Shown: positions 40,945 through 64,000 of the stretch, piece after piece
How positions within the stretch are numbered: the stretch's first letter is position 1
Layout of the letters: the number at the start of each line of letters is the position of its first letter
Source: Mobula hypostoma
Lineage: Eukaryota
Length of the DNA stretch: 64,000 bases
Assembly (NCBI RefSeq): GCF_963921235.1
Contig: NC_086097.1
Coordinates: forward strand, 119,414,001 to 119,478,000
Direction of reading: 5' to 3'
Notes under the pieces: generated by a model
What the model saw: the letters and a program-made list of their open reading frames with translations, nothing else
Told to the model about the DNA's origin: nothing
Database searches by the model: none
Position numbers and translations under genes: made by a program

Positions 40945-43900
40945 TATGAAAGAAAATCATAGCTGGGAGTTGAACATCAAGGGATATCCTTTGTATTGAA
41001 AGGACAAGCAGGAAGACATAAGTGGTGGTGTGGCTCTATCGGTAAGAGATGAAATTACATTATTAGAAAGAGGTGTCATAGGGTCAGAGAATGTCGAATC
41101 TTTGTAGGTGGAGTCAAGAAACTGCAAGGGTAAAAATAAACATTATGGGAATCATAAATATGCCTCCAAGTAGTAGCCAAGGTGTGGAGTTGAGATTGCA
41201 AAGGGAGCTGGAAAGGGAATATAATAAAGGTAATGTCACAATTGTAATGGGGGATTTCAATATGCAAGGGGATTGGGAAAATCAGGTTGGTGTTGGATCA
41301 CAAGAGAGGAAATTTGTTGAATGCCTATGAGATAGCTTTTTAGCGCCTACTAGGAGAAACACTATCTTATATTGGGTGTTGTGCAATAACCCAGATTTTA
41401 TTAATGAGCTTAATGTAAAGGAACCCTTGGGAGGCAGTGATCATAAGATGATTGAGCTGATACTGCAGTTTAAGAGGAAGAAGCATAAGTCACATGTATC
41501 AGTATCACAATAGAATAAAGGGAATTACAGAGGTATGAGAGAGAGCTTGTCCAGGTGGATTGGAGGGGAATACTGGCAGGGATGTCATAAGCCCATAAGA
41601 CCATAAGATAGAGGAGCAGAAGTAGTCAACTTGCATCTGCTCCACCATTCAATCATGGGATGATCCAATTCTTCCAGTCATCTCCACTCCATGTAATTCC
41701 ACGGGATCTTATCTTTCTAAGCAGCCTCATGTGCGGCACCTTGTCAAAGGCCTTCTGAAAATCCAAGTACACTACATCTACTACATCTCCTTTGTCTACC
41801 CTGCTTGTAATTTCTTAAAAAAATTAACAGTTGGTTTGTCAGGCAGGATTTTCCTTTCAAGAAACCATCCTGGCTTTGGCCTATCTTGTCATGTGCCTCC
41901 AGGTACTCCATAATCTCATCTCTAACAATTGAATCCAACAATTTCTCAACCACTGATGTCAGGCTAATGGTCTATAGTTTCCTTTTTGCTGCCTCCCACC
42001 CTTCTTAAATAGCTGAGTAACATTTGCCATTTACCAGTCATCCGGTACAATGCCAGAATCTATCGATTCTTGAAAGATCACTGTTAATGCCTTTGTAATC
42101 TCTCCAGCTACTTCCTTCAGAACCCGAGGGTGCACTCCATCAGGTCCAGGAGAGTTACCCACCCTCAGACCATTAAACTCCCTGAGCACTTTCTCAGTTG
42201 TAATTTTCACTGCACATCCTTCACTTCCCCGACACTCTTGAACATCCGGTATACTGCAGATGTCTTCCACTGTGAAGACTGTTGCAAAATATGCACTCAG
42301 TTCCTCTACCATCTCTGCGTCTCTCATTACAATATCTCTATTGGTCCTGTATTTACCATTAACTCTCTTTTACCCTTTATATACTTAAATAAAACTTCAA
42401 GTATCTTCTTTGATATTAGATGCCAGCTTCCTTTCATAATTCATCTTTTCCTTCCTAATGACCTTCTTAGTTTCCTTCTGCAAGTTTTTAAAAGCTTCCC
42501 TTCAGAATACTCTGCACCCGATCCGAGACATCCCGTACCCTGGCACCTGGGAGGCAACATACCATGCGGGTATCTCAATCAGGCTGACAGAACCTCCTGT
42601 CTGTATTCCTCACTATGGAAACCCCTATGACTATCGCATTCCTCATCTTCCTTTTTCCCTTCTACACCATGGAGGCAGGTTCTGTGCTAGAGACCCGATC
42701 ACTGTGGTCATCCTCTGTCAGGTCATCCCCCTCAACAGCATCCAAAATGAGATAACAATTACTGAGGGGGGTGGCCTCTAGGGTGTTCTCAACCATCTGA
42801 TCTCTTCCCTTCCCTTCCCTGACAGTCACCCACTTATCTAACTCCTGCAGCCTCGGGATGACTCATTCCTGGTCGCTTCTGTCTATCTTCTGCTCACTTT
42901 CCCTAATACGCTGTAGGTTATCAAGCCGCTGCTTCAGATCCTTAACACGGTCTCTCAGAAGCTGCATCTCGGTGCACCTGGCACAGATGTGGCCTTCTGG
43001 GAGACTGGATGATTCCCAAGTTCTCCGCATCTGACACCCGGAGCAAAATACAAACCCTACAGACATGCTCTATATTCCTCAGAAAATGCAAGGAAAAATG
43101 AAGTTCACTTACCCATTTATTTCCTCGAAGCCCGAATGAGCCAAAGCTCTACCACTCTGACTCAAACCACTCCGACAATCACCGCTCCACTAGGCAGTAT
43201 CTCCCTTTTATATCAGCAGAACAGAGATGGCTGAAGTTTCTAAGAGTAGTGCAAATTGTGCGGGATACATATGTCCCACAGAAGAAGTTCTCAAACAGCA
43301 GGGCTAGACAACCATGGCTGACAAGGGAAGTTAAGGACTGCATAAAAACCAAGGAAAGGGTATATGAGATAGCAAAAGTGAGTGGGAAGTTGGATGATTG
43401 GGAAGCTTTTAAAATCCAGCAAAAGGCAACTAAGAAAGCTATAAGAAGCAGAAGGATGAAATATGAGGGCCAACTAGCTGATAATATAAAGCTGGATATT
43501 AAAAGTTATTTCAGTTATAAAAAGAATAAAAGGGAGGTACTAGTTGATATCGGACCACTGGAAAGTGATGGTGGTGAGGTAGTAATAGAGAACAAAGAAA
43601 TGGCAGATGAACTTAGTAAATACTTTCCTTCAGTCTTTGCTGTGGAAGACACTAGCAGTGTGTCAGAGGTCCGTGAGTGTCAGGGAGCAGGAATGAGCAC
43701 TATTGCTATTAAAAAGAAAAAATAAGTGCTAGGCAAACTGAAAGGTCTTAAGGTGGAGAAGTCACCTGGAACAAATAGACTACATGCCAGAGTCCTGAAA
43801 GAAGTTGCTGAAGAGATAATGGATGCCTTGGTCATGTTCTTTTAAGAATCACTTGATTCTGGCATCGTCCTGGAGGACTGGAAAATTTCAAATGTCACTC

Positions 43901-52054: not shown

Positions 52055-55000
52055 AGACCATAATACCATAAGACACAGGCCCTTCACCATTCAATAGGTT
52101 TCAATCAGGTCACCCATCATTCTGCTGAATTCTAGTGAATGCAGGCCCAGGGATATCAGACGCTCTTCATATAACAATGGAATCATTGTTGTGAATGCTC
52201 TTTTGAACTGTCTCCAGTTTCAGCACATCCTTTCTAAGATAAGGGGCCCAAAACTGCTCACAATACTCCAAGTGAGGCCTCACTATTGCTTTATAAAGTA
52301 TCAACATTGCATCCTTGCTTTTATATTCTAGTCCTCTCGAAATTAATGCAAACATCACATTTGCCTTCCACAGCACAGACTTAACCTACAAATTAACCTT
52401 TAGGGAATCTTGCCTCCTGTCAAGTACTTTTGCACCTCAGTCCATTTAGAAAGTAGTCAGGCCTTTCTATTTCTTCTACCTGAGTGCATGACTATACACT
52501 TCCCAACACTGTATTCCATCTGCTATTTCTTTGCCCATTCTCCTACTCTTTCGAAGTCCTTCTGTAGCCTCTCCACTTCCTGAAAACAATCTGCCCCGAC
52601 ACTATCTTCATATTGTCTACAAACTTTGCAACAAAGCCATCAATTTCATCATCCAAATCATTGACATATAACATAAAAAGTATCAGTTCTAACACAGACC
52701 CCTGTGGAACACCAGCAGTCACCGGCAGCCAGTCAGAAAAGGCTCCCTTCATTCTCACTCGTTGTCCCCTGCCAAATAATCACTATGTTATCCATGCTAG
52801 AATCTTCCCTGTAATACAATGGGCTTGTAGACTTTTAAGTAGCATTATGTATGGCACCTCGTCAAAGGCCTTCTAAAAATCCAGGTGCACAACATTAACT
52901 GATTCTACTTTGTCTACCTTGCTTGTTGTTTTCTCAAAGAATTCCAACAGACTTGTCAGGCAAGGAAACCATGCTGACTATGGCCTATTTTCTCATATAC
53001 CTCCAAGTACCCTGACATCTCATCCTTGATAATTGACTCCAACATCTTCCCAACCACTGAGGTCTGACTAACTGGCCTATAGTTTCCTTTCTTCTGCCTC
53101 TCTCCCTTCTTGAAGAGTGGAGTGATGTTTACAATTTTCCAGTCTTCCGGAACCATTCCAGAATCTAGTGATGCTTGAAAGATCATTGCTAATGCCTCCA
53201 CAATCTCTTCAACCGCCTCTTTCAGACCCTGGACTGTACATCATCGGGTCCAGGTGACTTATCTACCTTCAGACCTTTCAGTTTCCCAATAAGCTTCAGT
53301 CTACTTGTGGTAACTTCACACATTTCATGCCTCCTGACATCTGGAATTTTCACCATACTGCTAGTGTCTTCCACAGTGAATACTGATGCAAAGTTCTTTT
53401 CAGTTCATCTGCCATTTCCTTATCCCTCATTACTACCTGCCCAGCATTGTTGTTTCCAGTGGTCCAATATCCACTCTCGCCTTTCTTTTACACTTTATGT
53501 ATTGGAAGAAACTTTTGGCATCCTCTTTAATATTATTGACCAGATTACTTTTGTATTCCATCTTTTCCTTCCTATTGACTTCTTTTAGTTCTTTCTGTTG
53601 GTTTTTAAAAGCTTCCCAATTCTCTATCTTCTTACTAATTTTTGCTCTATTATTTGTGCTCCCTTTTGCTTTCTTGCTGGTTTTGACTTCTCTTGTTAGT
53701 TGCGGCTGTGTCATCTTTCCTTCAGAATACTCCTTCCTCTTTGGATGTATATATCCTGTGCCTTTCAAATTGCTTCATGAAGTTCCAGCCATAGCTGCTC
53801 TGCAGTCATCCCTTCCAGATCCAATTCTGGTTAAATCCTCTCTCGTGCTGTAATTCCATTTACTCCACTGTAATACTGATACATCTGACTTTAGCTTCTC
53901 CTTCTCAAATTTCAGGGTGAATTCAATTATATTATTATCACACCCTGGGAAAGGTTTCACTGCTAACATAATGATCTTTCTGTAGAAGCAGTGCTGGGTT
54001 ATGGTTAGAGATAACAGATGTTTTGAAATGTGAGCTGGGTCTTTTGTTCGGTGTGAGATGAAGAGAGAAGACACTGGAAAGAACTGGCCATAGGATACGA
54101 CCCGGTGGGGAGATTGTGATTCGATGGAGCCAGGCAGCCAGATTGACTGAGGATAGGTGAAATGAGCTCCTACTGGTGCACATTTGACTGTTTAATTATA
54201 ATGGGCCTTTATTTGTTTTTTCTTTCTTTTCTTTACTAACCCTTTAGATAAAATTCATAAGTATAATTCTTTTAATTGTATGCAGTGTGGTGTCTGTTGT
54301 TTCTTGGCACTGCGTTGTAACAGAATTGCAAATTACACAGCATCCACTCAAACTGGGGTTTGCAGTAGGGACTGTCTCAGTCTCCTGGGTTTGACTGGAC
54401 TGGGGTATGTCTTCCCTAGACTTACACAGCCAAGGAAACCAGTGGGGTTTCATTATGATCACTTTCCCCTTAGGGTTCTTTTACCTTAAGGTCTCTAACC
54501 AATTCTGGTTCATTGTATAATGCCCAATCCAGAATAGCTGGTCCCCTAGCGGGCTCAAACATGAGCTACTCTAACAATCCATCTCATAGGCACTCTAGAA
54601 ATGCCCACTCCTGGGATCCAGCACCAGCCTGATTTTCCCAATCTACCTGCATATTGAAATACCCAATGACTATTGTAAAATTTGAACTTTTGGCATGCAT
54701 TTTCTATCTGCCATTGTAATTTGTAGACCACATCCTTGCTACTGTTTGGGGGTCTGTATACAGCTCCTATCAGGGTCTTTTTACCCTTGCATTCCCTTTG
54801 TTCTATCCACAATGATTCCACATCTTCTAATACTATGTCACCGCTTTCTAATGATTTGATTTCATTTTTTTTTACCAACAGAGCCATGCAGCCCTTCTGG
54901 CTTCCCGCCTGCCCCTTCAATACAATGTGTATCCTTGAAAATTATGCTCCCAGATATATTCTCCTTTCAACCATGATTCTGTGATGCCTACAACATCATA

Positions 55001-55682
55001 CCTGACAATCTGTAACTGTGTTACAAGTTCATCGACCTTATTCTGTATACTGTGTGCATTCAAATATTACAACTAATTTAAACACCACCATGCTGCATTA
55101 TCAAGTCTTCCCACTAAGATGTTAGCCCCCTCCAGGTCAAATGCAAATCATCCCTTCTGTACAGCTCCCACATTCCCTAGAAGAGAGTCCAATGATCCAA
55201 AAATCTTATGCCTTTTCTCCTGCAGCAACTCCTTAGCCATGTATTACACTGTGTACACTTCCTAGTTCCAGCCTCACTCGCATGTGGCATGGTTAGCAAT
55301 CCTCAGATCACAATCCTGGTGGTCCTGCCCTTTAACTTAGCAGCTAACTCCCTGAACTCTCCGTGCAGAACCTTGCCATTCTTCCTGTCCATGTCATTGG
55401 TACCTACATGGACCACAACTTCTGGCTGTTCACCCTCCCATTTATGAATGTTAAGGACTCTGTCTAAGATATCCCAGACCCTGGCACTAGGGAGGCAACG
55501 TACTATCTGGTAATCTTGTTCTCGCCCACATAACCTCCTGTCCGTTTTCCTAACTTACTAATCCCCTTTCACCACAGTGTGCCTCTTCTCCCGCTTTCCC
55601 TTCTGAGTCACAGAGGCAGACTCAATGCCAGAGACCTGACAACCGTGACTTTCCCCTGTTCAGTCAATCCCCCCCTCCCACA
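52055..55682 (-). mobile_element. Decayed CR1 of a divergent subfamily (ORF1 C-terminal half, EN, RT, tail)
   Basis: ORF1 end ANILVGRLDNAAWWCLN*, VYRPPNS, NYRPVSQTSVVGK, GVPQGSVL, RPHLEYC. Confidence 0.88.
53936..54452. mobile_element. Solo LTR inserted in CR1
   Basis: tatcacaccc (presumably tgtca originally) to ggggtttca; 4-bp TSD TTAT (53932-53935, 54453-54456); the CR1 is continuous across it. Confidence 0.72.
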
Positions 55683-56477
55683 ACTGTAGGTTCATGAGGA
55701 GCAGTGTTAAGTCTGGACAGAAATTTTAATTAAAGCCAAGTGTTTAAAGATGCTAGGCAGAGCCAATCTTCAGTCTGGGCAGTGTATAGGTTAACTGGGT
55801 AGATTGGTGAGTAGGAGTCTGACCAAGAGATAATCAGTTTAGTGTGAGTGCCACTTTAATTAACATTGCATAGAGTTGTCCGTGACAAACAAGATGCCCA
55901 TCTATTAATTCCCTGTGCCCGCAATTTACATACCTCTGTTGGGTGCAATGAGTATTTCTTTGTCAATGTGTCAGGATATCTTAGTCTTTAAAATCATTAA
56001 AAGCTGACTCTTCTGTGAATGTTTAGTAACTATTATTCTTGAGACCATTGTAGTTAAAAATTTACCATTCTCTTTGGTTCCTATGTCTGTGTTCAATGGG
56101 AATTTAACAAAACATGATGCAGTGTATCAAAGAGACTGACAATGACTTCACCTGTCACTCTCCTCTTGATGTCATTTTGATCTATTTGACAGGGCTGATG
56201 TACAAGAAAATCTTAACAGAAAGTGAACATACAATGGTGGTGACTGACATTATGACAGCCAGACACATAAGCAAAGATGCTTTACTCTCTGTTATCACAA
56301 CATTCAGCTTCAATCTATTTCTTTTCTTGGCATTGCCATGATATAGAATTAAGACGATGGCTGTAAAAATACCTCTTAAATGTTTTGTAGAATTCCTGTT
56401 GTACTTTGACATATAGAACAAACACAATCACAAATGTTATTAATTCATACCCCAAAAGAGATTAGCTTTATTTCTCA

Positions 56478-56752: not shown

Positions 56753-56924
56753 CCTACAGTAAAACTCATCAAAAGTCCAGACATTAGAGTGGTCTGGCCC
56801 TGTACGCGTTCCTGCTTATCTAATGCATAGAAACATAGAAACATAGAAAATAGGTGCAGGAGTAGGCCATTCGGCCCTTTGAGCCTGCACCGCCATTTAT
56901 TATGATCATGGCTGATCATCCAAC

Positions 56925-59900
56925 TCAGAACCCAGCCTTCCCTCCATACCCCCTGACCCCTGTAGCCACAAGGGCCATATCTAACTTCCTTTTAAACATA
57001 GCTAATGAACTGGCCTCAACAGTTTGCTGTGGCAGAGAATTCCACAGATTCACCACTCTCTGTGTGAAGAAGTTTTTCCTAATCTCGGTCCTAAAAGGCT
57101 TCCCCTCTATCCTCAAACTGTGACCCCTCGTTCTGGACCTCCCCAACATCGGGAACAATCTTCCCGCATCTAGCCTGTCCAATCCCTTTAGGATCTTATA
57201 CGTTTCAATCAGATCCCCCCTCAATCTTCTAAATTCCAACGAGTACAAGCCCAGTTCATCCAGTCTTTCTTCATATGAAAGACCTGCCATCCCAGGAATC
57301 AATCTGGTGAACCTTCTTTGTACTCCCTCTATGGCAAAGATGTCTTTCCTCAGATTAGGGGACCAAAACTGCACACAATACTCCAGGTGTGGTCTCACCA
57401 AGGCCTTGTACAACTGCAGTAGTACCTCCCTGCTCCTGTACTTGAATCCTCTCGCTATAAATGCCAGCATACCGTTCGCCTTTTTCACCGCCTGCTGTAC
57501 CTGCATGCCCACTTTCAATGACTGGTGTATAATGACACCCAGGTCTCGTTGCACCTCCCCTTTTCCTAATGGGCCACCATTCAGATAATAATCTGTTTTC
57601 CTATTTTTGCCACCAAAGTGGATAACTTCACATTTATCCACATTAAATTGCATCTGCCATGAGTTTGCCCACTCATCCAACCTATCCAAGTCACCCTGCA
57701 TCCTCTTAGCATCCTCCTCACTGCTAACACTGCCACCCAGCTTCGTGTCATCCGCAAACTTGGAGATGCTGCATTTAATTCCCTCATCCAAGTCATTAAT
57801 ATATATTGTAAACAACTGGGGTCCCAGCACTGAGCCTTGCGGTACCCCACTAGTCACCGCCTGCCATTCTGAAAAGGTCCCGTTTATTCCCACTCTTTGC
57901 TTCCTGTCTGCTAACCAATTCTCCACCCACACCAATACCTTACCCCCAATACCGTGTGCTTTAAGTTTGCACACTAATCTCCTGTGTGGGACCTTGTCAA
58001 AAGCCTTTTGAAAATCCAAATATACCACATCCACTGGTTCTCCCCTATCCACTCTACTAGTTACATCCTCAAAAAATTCTATGAGATTCGTCAGACATGA
58101 TTTTCCTTTCACAAATCCATGCTGACTTTGTCCGATCATTTCACCGCTTTCCAAATGTGCTGTTATCACATCCTTGATAACTGACTCCAGCAGTTTCCCC
58201 ACCACCGACGTTCGGCTAACCGGCCTATAATTCCCCGGATTCTCTCTCCCTCCTTTTTTAAAAAGTGGGGTTACATTAGCCACCCTCCAATCCTCAGGAA
58301 CTAGTCCAGAATCTAACGAGTTTTGAAAAATTATCACTAATGCATCCACTATTTCTTGGGCTACTTCCTTAAGCACTCTGGGATGCAGACCATCTGGCCC
58401 TGGGGATTAATCTGCCTTCAATCCCTTAAATTTACCTAACACCACTTCCCTACTAACATGTATTTCGCTCAGTTCCTCCATCTCACTGGACCCTCTGTCC
58501 CTTACTATTTCTGGAAGATTATTTATGTCCTCCTTAGTGAAGACAGAACCAAAGTAATTATTCAATTGGTCTGCCATGTCCTTGCTCCCCATAATCAATT
58601 CACCTGTTTCTGTTTGCAGGGGACCTACATTTGTCTTTATCAGTCTTTTCCTTTTTACATATCTATAAAAGCTTTTACAGTCCGTTTTTATGTTCTCTGC
58701 CAGTTTTCTCTCATAATCTTTTTTCCCCTTCCTAATTAAGCCCTTTGTCCTCCTCTGCTGAACTCTGAATTTCTCCCAGTCCTCAGGTGAGCCACTTTCT
58801 CTGGCTAATTTGTATGCGACTTCTTTGGAATTGATACTATCCCTAATTTCTCTTGTCAGCCACGGGTGCACTACCTTCCTTGATTTATTCTTTTGCCAAA
58901 CCGGGATGAACAATTGTTGTAGTTCATCCATGCAACCTTTAAATGCCTGCCATTGCATATCCACCGTCAATCCTTTAAGTGTCATTTGCCAGTCTATCTT
59001 AGCTAATTCACGACTCATACCTTCAAAGTTACCCCTCTTTAAGTTCAGAACCTTTGTTTCTGAATTAACTACGTCACTCTCCATGTTAATGAAGAATTCC
59101 ACCATATTATGGTCACTCTTGCCCAAGGGGCCTCTCACGACAAGATCGCTAATTAACCCTTCCTCATTGCTCAAAACCCAGTCCAGAATAGCCTGCTCTC
59201 TAGTCGGTTCCTCGACATGTTGGTTCAAAAAACCATCCCGCATACATTCCAAGAAATCCTCTTCCTCAGCACCTTTACCAATTTGGTTCACCCAGTCTAC
59301 ATGTAGATTGAAGTCACCCATTATAACTGCTGTTCCTTTATTGCACACATTTCTAATTTCCTGTTTAATACCATCTCCGACCTCACTACTACTGTTAGGT
59401 GGCCTGTACACAACTCCCACCAGCGTCTTCTGCCCCTTAGTGTTACGCAGCTCTACCCATATCGATTCCACATCTTCCCGGCTTATGTCCTTCCTTTCTA
59501 TTGCGTTAATCTCTTTTTTAACCAGCAACGCCACCCCACCTCCCCTTCCTTCATGTCTATCCCTCCTGAATATTGAATATCCCTGAACGTTGAGCTCCCA
59601 TCCCTGGTCACCCTGGAGCCATGTCTCTGTGATCCCAACTATATCATAATCATTAATAACAATCTGCACTTTCAATTCATCCACCTTATTACGAATGCTC
59701 CTTGCATTGACACATAAAGCCTTCAGGCGCTCTTTTACAACTCTCTTAGCCCTTTTTAATGCTTGCCCTGGATTTGTCGGCCTGCCACTTTTACTTTTCC
59801 CCTTTGTACTTTTTGCTTCTACGCTCACTTTACACCCCTCTGTCTCTCTGCACTGGTTCCCATCGCTCTGTTGTGAACTAACCTCCTCACACCTAGCCTC

Positions 59901-59933
59901 TTTAATTTGATTCCCACCCCCCAACCATTCTAG
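56925..59933 (-). pseudogene. CR1 ORF2: APE endonuclease plus reverse transcriptase, one in-frame nonsense codon (58407-58409)
   Basis: NARSI, GITETW, VYRPP, MGDFN, SDH; NYRPVS, DFQKAFD, GVPQGSVLGP, FADD. D*SPGPDG replaces DKSPGPDG with the frame preserved. Confidence 0.95.
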
Positions 59934-60865
59934 TTTAAAGTCACCTCAGTAGCCCCCGCTAATCTCCCTGCCAGGATATTGGTCCCCCTAGGATTTAAGT
60001 GTAACCCGTCCTTTTTGTACAGGTCACACCTGCGCCAAAAGAGGTCCCAATGATCCAAAAACTTGAATCCCTGCCCCCTGCTCCAATCCCTCAGCCACGC
60101 ATTTATCCTCCACCTCATCGCATTCCTACTCTCACTGTCGCGTGGCACAGGCAGTAATCCCGAGATTACTACCTTTGCGGTCCTTTTTCTCAACTCCCTT
60201 CCTAGCTCCCTATATTCTTCTTTCAGGACCTCATCCCTTTTCCTACCTATGTCATTGGTACCTATATGTACCAGGACCTCTAGCTCTTCACCCTCCCACT
60301 TCAGGATATCTTGGACACGATCAGAAATATCCCGGACCCTGGCACCAGGGAGGCAAACTACCATCCGAGTCTCTGGACTGCGTCCACAGAATCGCCTATC
60401 TGACCCCCTTACTATCGAGTCCCCTATCACAACTGCCCTCCTCTTCCTTGCCCTACCCTTCTGAGCTACAGGGCCAGACTCTGTGCCGGAGGCAGGGCCA
60501 CTGTCGCTTCCCCCGGGTAAGCTGTCCCCTCCAACAGTACTCAAACAGGAGTACCTGTTGTTAAGGGGCACAGCCGCCGGGGTACTCCCCATCACCTGCC
60601 TTTTCCCCTTCCCCCTCCTAACCGTGACCCACTTGTCTGCCTCCCGTGGCCCCGGCGTGACCACCTGCCTTCCACTCCTCTCTATCACCTCCTCGCTCTC
60701 CCTGACCAGACGAAGGTCATCGAGCTGCAGCTCCAGTTCCGTAACGCGGTCCCTTAGGAGCTGCATCTCGATGCACTTGGCGCAGATGTAGACGTCCGGG
60801 AGGCTTGGAGACTCCAGGGCCTCCCACATCCGACACCGAGAACAGCAAACTGCCCTCACAGTCAT
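59930..60865 (-). CDS. CR1 ORF1p: zinc finger, coiled coil, SGNH esterase (311 aa from the ATG)
   Basis: CSRC...CAKC, LRDRVTELELQLDDL, GDSIVRG, HIGTND, DGLHL. Confidence 0.93.
   Translation of the reverse strand: MTVRAVCCSRCRMWEALESPSLPDVYICAKCIEMQLLRDRVTELELQLDDLRLVRESEEVIERSGRQVVTPGPREADKWVTVRRGKGKRQVMGSTPAAVPLNNRYSCLSTVGGDSLPGGSDSGPASGTESGPVAQKGRARKRRAVVIGDSIVRGSDRRFCGRSPETRMVVCLPGARVRDISDRVQDILKWEGEELEVLVHIGTNDIGRKRDEVLKEEYRELGRELRKRTAKVVISGLLPVPRDSESRNAMRWRINAWLRDWSRGQGFKFLDHWDLFWRRCDLYKKDGLHLNPRGTNILAGRLAGATEVTLN
59933..59939 (-). promoter_or_regulatory. Candidate -1 frameshift slippery site U UUA AAC
   Basis: In the ORF1 frame immediately before UAG; the -1 frame is ORF2. Confidence 0.65.
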
Positions 60866-61028
60866 AATGCCCCTCTCCTCAAATAGCAACAGAAAATGAA
60901 TGTCAAACCTTCCTCGCCTCGCCCGCTTCCGCCTAAGCCCGGTGAGCCGAAGCCCTTAAGTCTTCACTCTGCTCCCGGCTCACTCCGCCGCCCGCAAACT
61001 ACGCTGCCCGCTCTATGAGGCTTTGTTC

Positions 61029-61687
61029 CTTTTAAATCTGCCGTGCTGCACTGCCCGACGTCACACGCCTGCGCAGTCCCGCCTCTCAGAAAGCCGTTGG
61101 AGAAAAAAAATAACGAAAATTTCAAAAATCTCTTTCTCGGCACTCCCACTCAGACTCTCAGACTCCTTCTTCGAATCAAATCCGAAGCAGGATGTCTGCC
61201 CTTTTAAATCTGCCGCGCTGCACTGCCCGACGTCACACGCCTGCGCAGTCCCGCCTCTCAGAAAGCCGTTGGAGAAAAAAAAATAACGAAAATTTCAAAA
61301 ATCTCTTTCTCGGCACTCCCACTCAGACTCTCAGACTCCTTCTTCGAATCAAATCCGAAGCAGGATGTCTGCCCTTTTAAATCTGCCGCGCTGCACTGCC
61401 CGACGTCACACGCCTGCGCAGTCCCGCCTCTCAGAAAGCCGTTGGAGAAAAAAAAATAACGAAAATTTCAAAAATCTCTTTCTCGGCACTCCCACTCAGA
61501 CTCTCAGACTCCTTCTTCGAATCAAATCCGAAGCAGGATGTCTGCCCTTTTAAATCTGCCGCGCTGCACTGACCGACGTCACACGCCTGCGCAGTCCCGC
61601 CTCTCAGAAAGCCGTTGGAGAAAAAAATAACGAAAATTTCAAAAATCTCTTTCTCGGCACTCCCACTCAGACTCTCAGACTCCTTCT
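61029..61687 (-). repeat. About 3.8 tandem 172-173-bp monomers in the CR1 5' UTR
   Basis: cttttaaatctgccg recurs at 61029, 61201, 61374 and 61547; copies are near-identical and differ mainly in A-run length. Confidence 0.95.
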
Positions 61688-62829
61688 TAGACGGTGACAC
61701 CAGATTATAGATTGTAATACTTTGGAATGCTTTAACAATCTGCAACTTCGTCAGCCGTAGACCAAAAATCTCTACAAAACTTAGCTCGTGACAATCTCTC
61801 TATAAAATTTAGCTTGTAGCAATGATCATGCTAAAACCAGTACACTTAGCAGCAACTTCTTTAGAAATGCTGCCCTCCACTGCCCCATTGCCAAACGTTT
61901 CTCCAGCATGTTAGCCAAATTACCATAGGACCAAAAGCCATAGCAGCAGAGTTAGGCAATTCAGCCCACTGTATCTGCTTTGCCTATGTCTGTATATGTC
62001 AATATATACATATCTGAAATTGAATCTGTCTAATTATGACATTGTGTCAGAGAGCACAAGAGTTTGGAATCCATTAGAGTATGGTAAATGAAATGGAATG
62101 TTTTTTGGACATCATTGCGAACTTGGTTTTTGATGAGCATATAGTTATTATACCTACCTTTTCCGAGTCGCTACATATCAGTCATCAGCTCTGTTACCAT
62201 GTAGCTCTGAATGGGGCAAAGTTGTGCAGACAAAAAGTACATCACGTGGCCTATGTATTTGCTAAAATTGAAGTTTGCTCAAAGGAAGTTCTGTTCTTTC
62301 TGCTCATAAGGAAGTTGATGGGGGAAATGCTGTGGATTTTCAGCATGGCATGGGAAATCCCAAACTAGAAATTGAATATCTTTTTCCAGGAAATTTCTTA
62401 GCTTACATCACACTTCTTTTGTTGGATTAATCAAAAGTGGTGACGAATCAGCATATAGGACAGAAATTGAAAACCTGGTTGAATGAAGCCACAGCACCCA
62501 ATAGCAGCAAAACCAAGAGCTGAATATCGACTACAGGAGGAAGAAGACAGAAGTCCATGCGGCAGTCCTCATCAGGGGATCAGAGGTGAAAAGGGTCTGT
62601 AGCTTTAAATCCCTTGGCATTAACATGTTAAAGGTTCTGTCTTCAGACTAACATACAAATAAGACGGGAGTTTGTGTAGATTCGTCATGTCAAATAAACT
62701 TTAACCAACTTCCACAGATGTATAGTGGAGAGTATCCTAACCGGTGGCAACGTGGCCTGGCGTGGAATCACCAATGGTCAGGAATGGAAAAGCCTACAGA
62801 AAGTGGTTGATACATACAAGGATTTGTGG

Positions 62830-63925
62830 AAACATAGAAACATAGAAACATTGAAACATACAGCACAATAGCAGGCCCTTCAGCTCACAAAGCTGTGCAG
62901 AACGTGTCCCTACCTTAGAACTATATAGGCTTTACCCATAGCCCTCTATTTTTCTGAGCTCCATGTAGCCATCCAGGAATCTCTTATAAGACCCTATCGT
63001 TTCCGCCTCTACCACCGTCACCAGCAGCCGATTCCACACACTCACCACTCTCTGCGTAAAAAACTTACCCCTGACATCTCCTCTGTACCTACTTCCAAGT
63101 ACCTTAAACCTGTGCCCTCTTGTGCGAGCCAATTCAGCCCTGGGGAATTTCACTATCCACACAATCAATGCCTCTCATTATCTTGTACACCTCTATCAAG
63201 TCACCTCTCATCCTCTGTCACTCCAAGGATAAAAGGCCAAGTTCACTCAATCTATTCCCATAAGGCAAGCTCTCCAATCCAGGCAACATCCTTGTAAATC
63301 TCCTTTGCAACCTTTCAATGGTTTCAACATCCTTCCTGTAGTGAGGCGACCAGAATTGAGCACAATACTCCAAGTGGGGTCTGACCAGGGTCCGATATAG
63401 CTGCAACATTACCTCTCAGCTCCTAAACTCAATTCCACGATTGATGAAGGTCAATGCATCGTGTGCCTTCTTAACCACAGAGACAATCACTTTAGCAGCT
63501 CTGAGTGTCCTATGGACTTGGACCCCAAGATCCATCTGATCCTGTACACTGCCAAAAGTCCCTACAAAATGAACCACCTCACACTTATCTGGGTTGAACT
63601 CCATCTGCCACTTCTCAGCCCAGTCTTGCATCCTATCAATGTCCTGTTATAATTTCTGACAGCCCTCCACACTATCCACAACACACTCAACCTTTGTGTC
63701 ATCAGCAAATTTACTAACCCAACCCTTCCCATCCTCATCCAGGTCATTTATAAAAATCACAAAGAGTAGGGGTCCCAGAACAGATCCCTGAGGCGCACCA
63801 CTGGTCACTGACCTCCAGGCAGAATATGACCCATCTACAACCACTCTTTGCCTTCTGTGGGTAAGCCAGTTCTGGATCCACAAAGCAATGTCCCCATGGA
63901 TCCCATGCCTCCTTACTTTCTCAGT
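62830..63925 (-). mobile_element. CR1 3' portion
   Basis: GAPQGSVLGP...FADD, RPHLEYCAQFWSP and (catagaaa)n tail. Confidence 0.9.
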
Positions 63926-63926
63926 A

Positions 63927-64000
63927 TGATGGGAGGAGAAGATGGCGGCATGATGGCATCATGCGCGGTCTCTCCAGTGATGAATATCTGTTATCTGTCA
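63927..64000 (+). mobile_element. Possible 5' end of another LINE running off the window
   Basis: Abrupt junction into ggagaagatggcgg (YY1-like AAGATGGCG start motif). Confidence 0.4.

Follow-up and report, generated by a model that had tools for sequence, protein, structure and literature searches.

In classic programmed -1 ribosomal frameshifting (-1 PRF), a slippery heptamer of the form X_XXY_YYZ is followed by a stem-loop or pseudoknot about 5-9 nt downstream. The ORF1a-1b junction of coronaviruses and arteriviruses and the retroviral gag-pol junction carry such a heptamer in the upstream open reading frame (ORF), with the polymerase in the -1 frame lacking a start of its own. The same arrangement was found between ORF1 and ORF2 of a near-complete long interspersed nuclear element (LINE) of the CR1 group, located on the minus strand at ~61,690 to 56,826 of a 64,000-nt stretch of the Mobula hypostoma genome (NC_086097.1, positions 119,414,001 to 119,478,000; hereafter the window, to which all positions refer). 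An earlier note on this DNA had proposed a frameshift cassette here, and the comparisons described below make it probable, at roughly 0.8, that programmed -1 ribosomal frameshifting takes place at the junction and yields a fusion of 1,313 aa. CR1 differs from the viral systems in being a non-LTR (long terminal repeat) retrotransposon, in the stop codon adjoining the heptamer, and in that no pseudoknot or stem-loop was found.

U_UUA_AAC, the heptamer concerned, is among the four shiftiest on mammalian ribosomes and is the site of infectious bronchitis virus, while G_UUA is listed for equine arteritis virus (PMC5009743). The nsp2 frameshift of the virus causing porcine reproductive and respiratory syndrome (PRRSV) depends on nsp1-beta and PCBP acting on CCCANCUCC, 11 nt 3' of the shift site, where the protein complex replaces RNA structure, and one case is described in which a stop codon close to the shift site is a requirement in its own right (PMC5009743). 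Among LINEs with two ORFs, translation of ORF2 has been called an open question (PMC3894237, PMC3708506); SART1 uses UAAUG coupling, and reinitiation over a 63-nt spacer is proposed for mammalian L1 (PMC3894237, PMC2881922, PMC5972666). For the Dictyostelium elements TRE5-A and TRE3-A, a -1 frameshift was stated in a figure legend as needed for ORF2 (PMC5911963). These two share with CR1 the APE-type non-LTR organization and are unlike it in belonging to the L1 clade and having another ORF1. Among retrotransposon groups, CR1 dominates in most vertebrate species; canonical CR1s carry an esterase ORF1, and chondrichthyan L2s are without ORF1 (PMC13343379, a 2026 survey).

The junction bases quoted in the earlier note were all present on the minus strand of the window, and its description of the frames was borne out. 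T TTA AAC stands in the ORF1 frame directly before TAG, and ORF2 lies in the -1 frame relative to ORF1, starting at 59945 just after a TGA. No in-frame Met occurs in ORF2 until GTAVIM, codon 207 counted from the heptamer, and the ATG at +5 opens an out-of-frame stretch of 8 codons. The features of the junction are as follows, with lineages as defined further on.

59930..60865, minus strand: ORF1, 311 aa, with N-terminal Cys pairs, a C-terminal SGNH/GDSL esterase (PF13472) and the end Leu-Asn-stop.
59946..59948, minus strand: TGA closing the -1 frame 6 nt upstream of the heptamer, read from the sequence.
59933..59939, minus strand: putative slippery heptamer U_UUA_AAC in the ORF1 frame, exact in 20/22 lineages.
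59930..59932, minus strand: ORF1 stop TAG, adjoining the heptamer; a stop in 20/22 lineages.
59917..59922, minus strand: G run at nt +11 to +16 past the heptamer (conserved core +11 to +15), a candidate stimulator from lineage comparison.
59730..59932, minus strand: 203-nt linker, open in the -1 frame only; its length and sequence differ between lineages.
56925..59939, minus strand: ORF2 frame from the heptamer, with APE endonuclease and reverse transcriptase (RT) (PF03372, PF14529, PF00078).

Only the -1 frame crosses the junction, because the motif holds TAA in the +1 frame and the stop follows in the zero frame. As expected of a classic -1 PRF site, the downstream ORF lies in the -1 frame and is open from the heptamer. 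No other in-frame X_XXY_YYZ occurred among the codon positions of ORF1 (309) and ORF2 (1,002); this one covers the final two codons of ORF1 and one further base. As a bare 10-mer with one mismatch, the motif occurred six times in the window against 6.2 expected, which is chance level; the case is therefore carried by position and conservation. The ORF2 of this copy contains one in-frame stop (58406-58404), unmentioned in the earlier note. The -1 frame was open to its end, 1,004-1,010 codons from the heptamer, in 5 of 12 fetched sibling copies, and both frames were whole in 3 of the 12.

For the comparison, 135 loci from this genome were combined with 42 from host DNA in metagenome contigs (177 in total), 153 of which contained the ORF1 end; the other 24, all from metagenomes, were cut short or without it. 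These fell into 23 groups with an ORF1-tail identity of 44-79%, and 22 lineages (7 from this genome and 15 others) were retained after L096, without a recognisable junction, was dropped. The 22 lineages form four groups sharing 30-41% endonuclease identity with each other, one of them bird-like by its named relatives, and the motif was common to all four. Codon usage was examined in a register set by the esterase motif and the next stop, independently of the heptamer, in the 18 of 23 lineages usable for this. The terminal Leu was encoded by TTA in 16 of 17 lineages, whereas five further conserved Leu columns had this codon in 8 of 68; the terminal Asn was encoded by AAC in 16 of 16, compared with 5 of 15 at another Asn column. 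The synonymous variation that the earlier note had named as a reason to abandon the idea was thus sought across lineages, and the terminal codons did not vary in this way. In a register placed by the heptamer itself, the codon preceding Leu ended in T in 21 of 22 lineages, across A, G, C, Y, T, H, S or D. The heptamer was followed by a stop in 20 of 22 (TAG in 16, TAA in 3, TGA in 1). A later set of 12 loci, obtained with a distant query and mostly from one family already counted, included 10 with a stop 26 codons past the esterase motif, namely seven exact heptamers and three single-base variants. The junction feature is real and deeply conserved, and in these alignments it is conserved as nucleotides, not as amino acids. 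As in classic -1 PRF, the junction has a zero-frame X_XXY_YYZ heptamer with conservation at synonymous sites.

The protein data agreed with the DNA. In 77 of the 120 ORF1 homologues listed (out of 160 found), the esterase motif lay 20-45 residues ahead of the C-terminus, and 73 of these 77 tails ended in Leu-Asn while the preceding residues varied freely. Named sources of LN-ending proteins were sharks and rays, coelacanth, frogs, turtles, squamates and birds. Residues without any U-ending codon were rare directly before LN (2/65 and 0/31 distinct tails) when compared with six positions upstream (80/390 and 37/186). An LN invariance of 44/44 came from hand-chosen sequences and was not used, the set of 73/77 being preferred. 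It could be argued that the ORF1 protein simply has to end in Leu-Asn and that the heptamer arises incidentally from the codons for these residues, as the LN end is so frequent in close homologues and mostly lies 26 residues past the esterase motif. This is highly improbable: exactly these positions admit no synonymous codons, which do occur at other conserved Leu and Asn residues; the codon before them keeps its third base while encoding eight amino acids; the motif-to-end distance ranges from 26 to 39 residues among lineages; and 4c1b, the solved ORF1 esterase of a relative, can be aligned no further than profile position 315 of 319.

Conservation of bases would also fit any cis-acting element, such as a ribonucleoprotein packaging site or an internal promoter, with ORF2 translated from an RNA of its own or from a spliced one. 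TAG might act as a splice acceptor, and TTTAAA is similar to the TATA-box consensus. The AG is absent in the 4 of 22 lineages where the stop is TAA or TGA, the motif is locked both to the ORF1 frame with its stop and to the -1 phase of ORF2, and this family has no AUG before codon 207 that a shorter RNA could use; we regard such a non-decoding role as quite unlikely. In contigs of four runs, no intron-like joint over the junction was present among the joints shown (15 of 16), which is not evidence either way.

The phase of ORF2 provided a second line of evidence for frameshifting. Among 72 copies with a stop-free linker, 67 had the endonuclease in the -1 phase (38 of 43 without the family of this copy), and the phase held across 17 different linker lengths, the shortest 86 and the longest 302 nt; the conservation of phase that the earlier note had proposed to check was found. 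The five open-linker copies off the -1 phase were single decayed copies. By lineage, -1 was the commonest phase in 16 of 19 and tied in one; the remaining two were an old family and a single broken copy. A count in which all 67 copies open back to the heptamer are in -1 phase was set aside in favour of the open-linker count, being true by construction (the other frames stop inside the motif), and the endonuclease landmark of L088 was discarded as a false match. In most lineages the -1 frame was closed 3-42 nt upstream of the heptamer, and because of this closure there is no shared upstream start for ORF2. An in-frame AUG ahead of the endonuclease was absent from all 29 open copies of this family and from L063, L065, L067 and L212; other lineages had AUGs in the ORF2 frame at scattered positions. 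In the single copies L162, L172, L177, P0137 and P0036, an indel near the junction fuses ORF1 in frame with ORF2. As far as seen, these are private mutations and not an active fused family. A search for natural ORF1-ORF2 fusions among longer proteins gave five matches, one with both esterase and endonuclease (P0121), which was interpreted as a mutated copy lying within a gene model.

Several results weigh against frameshifting or limit its support. The exact heptamer count of 20 of 22 lineages (G_UUA_AAC in one and U_UUA_AAU in one of the others) is partly circular, since it was the best heptamer match that fixed the register, and the lineages are related, so that the counts are not independent events. 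When all copies with both landmarks were included, only 84 of 122 were in the -1 phase, the old families being noisy; in the old lineage L031 it was found in 5 of 18 and was not the commonest. In a wider set of 50% representatives, LN ended 40 of 81 located tails and the other 41 ended otherwise; the signal is therefore confined to a subgroup of esterase LINEs. The earlier note had described the lack of an in-frame AUG for ORF2 in this copy; across the lineages none is held in common, but ATG is the codon 2 nt past the stop in 4 of 22, all bird-like. The same codon is GTG in two, TTG in two and ACG in one further lineage, and it is neither a start nor a near-start in the remaining 13 of 22. 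As an observation on a single copy, L091 has TAATG after the heptamer, a SART1-type UAAUG overlap in the ORF2 frame.

These codons bear on termination-reinitiation, by which ribosomes would stop at the end of ORF1 and restart 2 nt later (codon +6 to +8), with AUG or not and with the G run for positioning, and ORF2 would be a separate protein. L1 ORF2 is able to start without AUG. A restart at a fixed place would likewise produce the -1 phase, the start and near-start codons of nine lineages and the overlap of L091 are in line with it, and reinitiation is the mechanism that reviews give for SART1 and L1 (PMC3894237, PMC2881922, PMC3708506, PMC5972666). Both are, like CR1, bicistronic LINE RNAs with low ORF2 output, whereas their ORF2 is a separate protein and the CR1 frames overlap without a spacer. 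Reinitiation leaves the seven invariant bases ahead of the stop unexplained and would lack a start or near-start in 13 of 22 lineages, this one included (TGG). SART1 requires downstream structure (PMC5972666); the SART1-type UAAUG with such structure is absent in this CR1 family, TAATG being present in 1 of 22 lineages and no structure found. UGGGA of the TURBS (termination upstream ribosomal binding site) type acts upstream of the stop (PMC5972666); in CR1 it lies downstream and occurs in just 4 of 22 lineages. We consider reinitiation unlikely, though the least unlikely of the three alternatives to frameshifting.

The remaining points against a classic frameshift site concern its stimulator. 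No conserved local fold was detected past the junction (mean z -0.01, 0 of 22 lineages below -2, consensus fold empty), nor did 100-150 nt windows of this copy contain significant structure (z -0.9 and -1.0). A hairpin from +36 in a 70-nt window (z -2.1) was rejected as not common to other lineages. A three-tier G-quadruplex was present in 0 of 22 lineages and a two-tier pattern in 8 of 22. No shared long-range partner of the G run was found within the available 0.8-3.9 kb, the best duplexes being placed differently in each lineage; the fold programs used do not model pseudoknots, and partners were sought only within the fetched DNA. Rfam gave no match at the junction. A structured 3' stimulator of the classic kind was thus not found at the CR1 junction, and because of this failure we regard the junction as a variant of the classic -1 cassette, not a plain member.

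In the lineages the heptamer is followed by a stop, by seven bases that vary and by a run of five G. This run at +11 to +15 is a new observation of the present analysis. All 22 lineages had G at +11, +12 and +14, and 21 of 22 had it at +13 and +15; GGGG started at +11 and +12 in 21 of 22, and at no offset from +4 to +7 or from +20 to +29. The ORF2-frame Gly within the run was encoded by GGG in 14 of 14; this column ranked first in uniformity among 80 conserved degenerate ones (median 0.46), and the constraint therefore acts on the bases. The earlier note had described a G-rich tract at the usual position of a stimulator. The tract does begin at +7 in this copy, but its conserved part is the G5 after a 10-nt spacer; the conserved run sits further out than the usual position and is unstructured, and no stimulatory structure was found, so that this part of the proposal has to be modified. 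The arrangement is instead reminiscent of PRRSV, in that CR1 carries, about 11 nt 3' of the heptamer and so at the same spacing, a conserved motif that is unstructured and likewise of low complexity. The PRRSV motif is C-rich, whereas that of CR1 is G-rich and its binding protein hypothetical. The single-lineage exception G_UUA_AAC corresponds to the form listed for equine arteritis virus (PMC5009743).

Under the frameshift reading, translation would in most cases terminate at UAG, giving the 311-aa ORF1 protein, whereas a smaller share of ribosomes would move back by one base on U_UUA_AAC and go on to the esterase-endonuclease-RT fusion, with a predicted length of 1,313 aa. Slippage would probably be in tandem, tRNA-Leu moving from UUA to UUU and tRNA-Asn from AAC to AAA, with the predicted junction peptide ...EVTLN-LEWLGGGNQIK. 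The stimulus would be the unstructured G5 run at the leading edge of the ribosome, not an RNA fold. The run is probably bound by a protein or may contact the ribosome, and the termination pause at the stop codon may help slippage; this is the weakest step of the model.

No report proposing frameshifting for CR1 was found in a full-text literature search; Haas 1997, Kajikawa 1997, Kojima 2005, Alisch 2006, Marschalek 1992, the Repbase entries and supplements lie outside its coverage and may hold one. CR1 was not mentioned in the first 300,000 characters of the frameshift review (PMC5009743), and the words 'translation', 'overlap' and 'start codon' did not occur in the main text of the 2026 survey (PMC13343379).

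More distant relatives of ORF1 differed at their ends. Nine distant ORF1 tails ended in GN, and a search built from GN-ending proteins, hence biased to them, gave 82 proteins with named members from crabs and crayfish. Among its 67 located tails, 29 ended in GN (25 in QGN) and six had GN one residue earlier; others ended in SKN, FFR or GF-x. The other three of the shiftiest heptamers are G_GGA_AAC, A_AAA_AAC and G_GGU_UUU (PMC5009743), by which the crustacean-type QGN, SKN and GF tails could respectively be encoded; this compatibility is a hint only. Examples of crustacean-type esterase ORF1 are P0257, P0260, P0336, P0344, P0261 and relatives. DNA of GN-ending relatives was not found in viral contigs, prokaryote genomes or plasmids, and viral contigs contained no ORF1 relatives. 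It is a tentative and rather doubtful generalization that the esterase-ORF1 CR1 LINEs from sharks to birds make their replicase as a gag-pol-style fusion via protein-activated -1 frameshifting on a heptamer-stop-N7-G5 cassette, and that invertebrate relatives use the same mechanism with other top slippery heptamers.

The remainder of the element is consistent with a canonical CR1 LINE, having by its domains an APE and RT ORF2, an esterase ORF1 and a repeat-type 3' end without poly(A). A 3' end of short tandem repeats without poly(A) is a hallmark of CR1. Its terminal regions are as follows.

61028..61688, minus strand: 5' region with 3.8 tandem copies of a 173-bp unit; the repeats have 98% matches, and sibling copies align into the region.
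56826..56924, minus strand: short 3' untranslated region (UTR) with three copies of an 8-nt repeat at the end.

The near-identical 173-bp units recall the promoter monomers of mouse L1, and they may be promoter monomers here too. The esterase domain matched PF13472 with E 3.4e-16, and the ORF1 profile matched structure 4c1b with E 5.5e-43. With its esterase ORF1, APE-RT ORF2 and short 3' UTR with 8-nt repeats, the element is like the canonical vertebrate CR1. The nearest named ORF1 homologues were from rays and skates, and esterase-type homologues were also named from birds, turtles and squamates. The family is young: the junction-region matches were 99-100% identical in 40 of 40 scored (of 1,074 candidates).

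Other elements were also met. A second, decayed CR1 of another family lies at 54450-55700 (minus strand), with T TTA AAT TAG at 55082-55073 and its linker almost wholly deleted, so that the endonuclease directly follows the stop. The window further contains a LINE ORF1 fragment at 42500-43066 (minus strand), an endonuclease fragment of another copy at 40946-41587 (plus strand), and RT and C-terminal fragments of another CR1-like copy at 62829-63958 (minus strand) with the same 8-nt repeat at the end. In the databases, the LINE ORF1 proteins P0022, P0376 and P0083 were filed under Pseudomonas aeruginosa, a Brocadiaceae metagenome-assembled genome and a flatworm parasite, likely by host contamination. 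CR1 ORF1 was also present within gene models named ribosomal protein S24 (P0026), hydroxyacid oxidase 2 (P0121) and transmembrane protein 204 (P0064), which are likely mis-annotations.

The worked LINE cases are reinitiation, and the CR1 junction would contrast with them, including human LINE-1. The 25-nt cassette enables a direct test of how ORF2 is expressed. If frameshifting is true, CR1 ORF2 starts are wrongly annotated, and engineered CR1 assays would have to include the native junction. With its fixed position and lack of structure, the G run would represent a frameshift stimulator of a new kind, and the junction a natural structure-free frameshift switch that could be under the control of the host or of the element's own ORF1 protein. 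The endonuclease-RT would then carry a copy of ORF1 and could enter the ORF1 particle at a set ratio, as Pol does in retroviruses.

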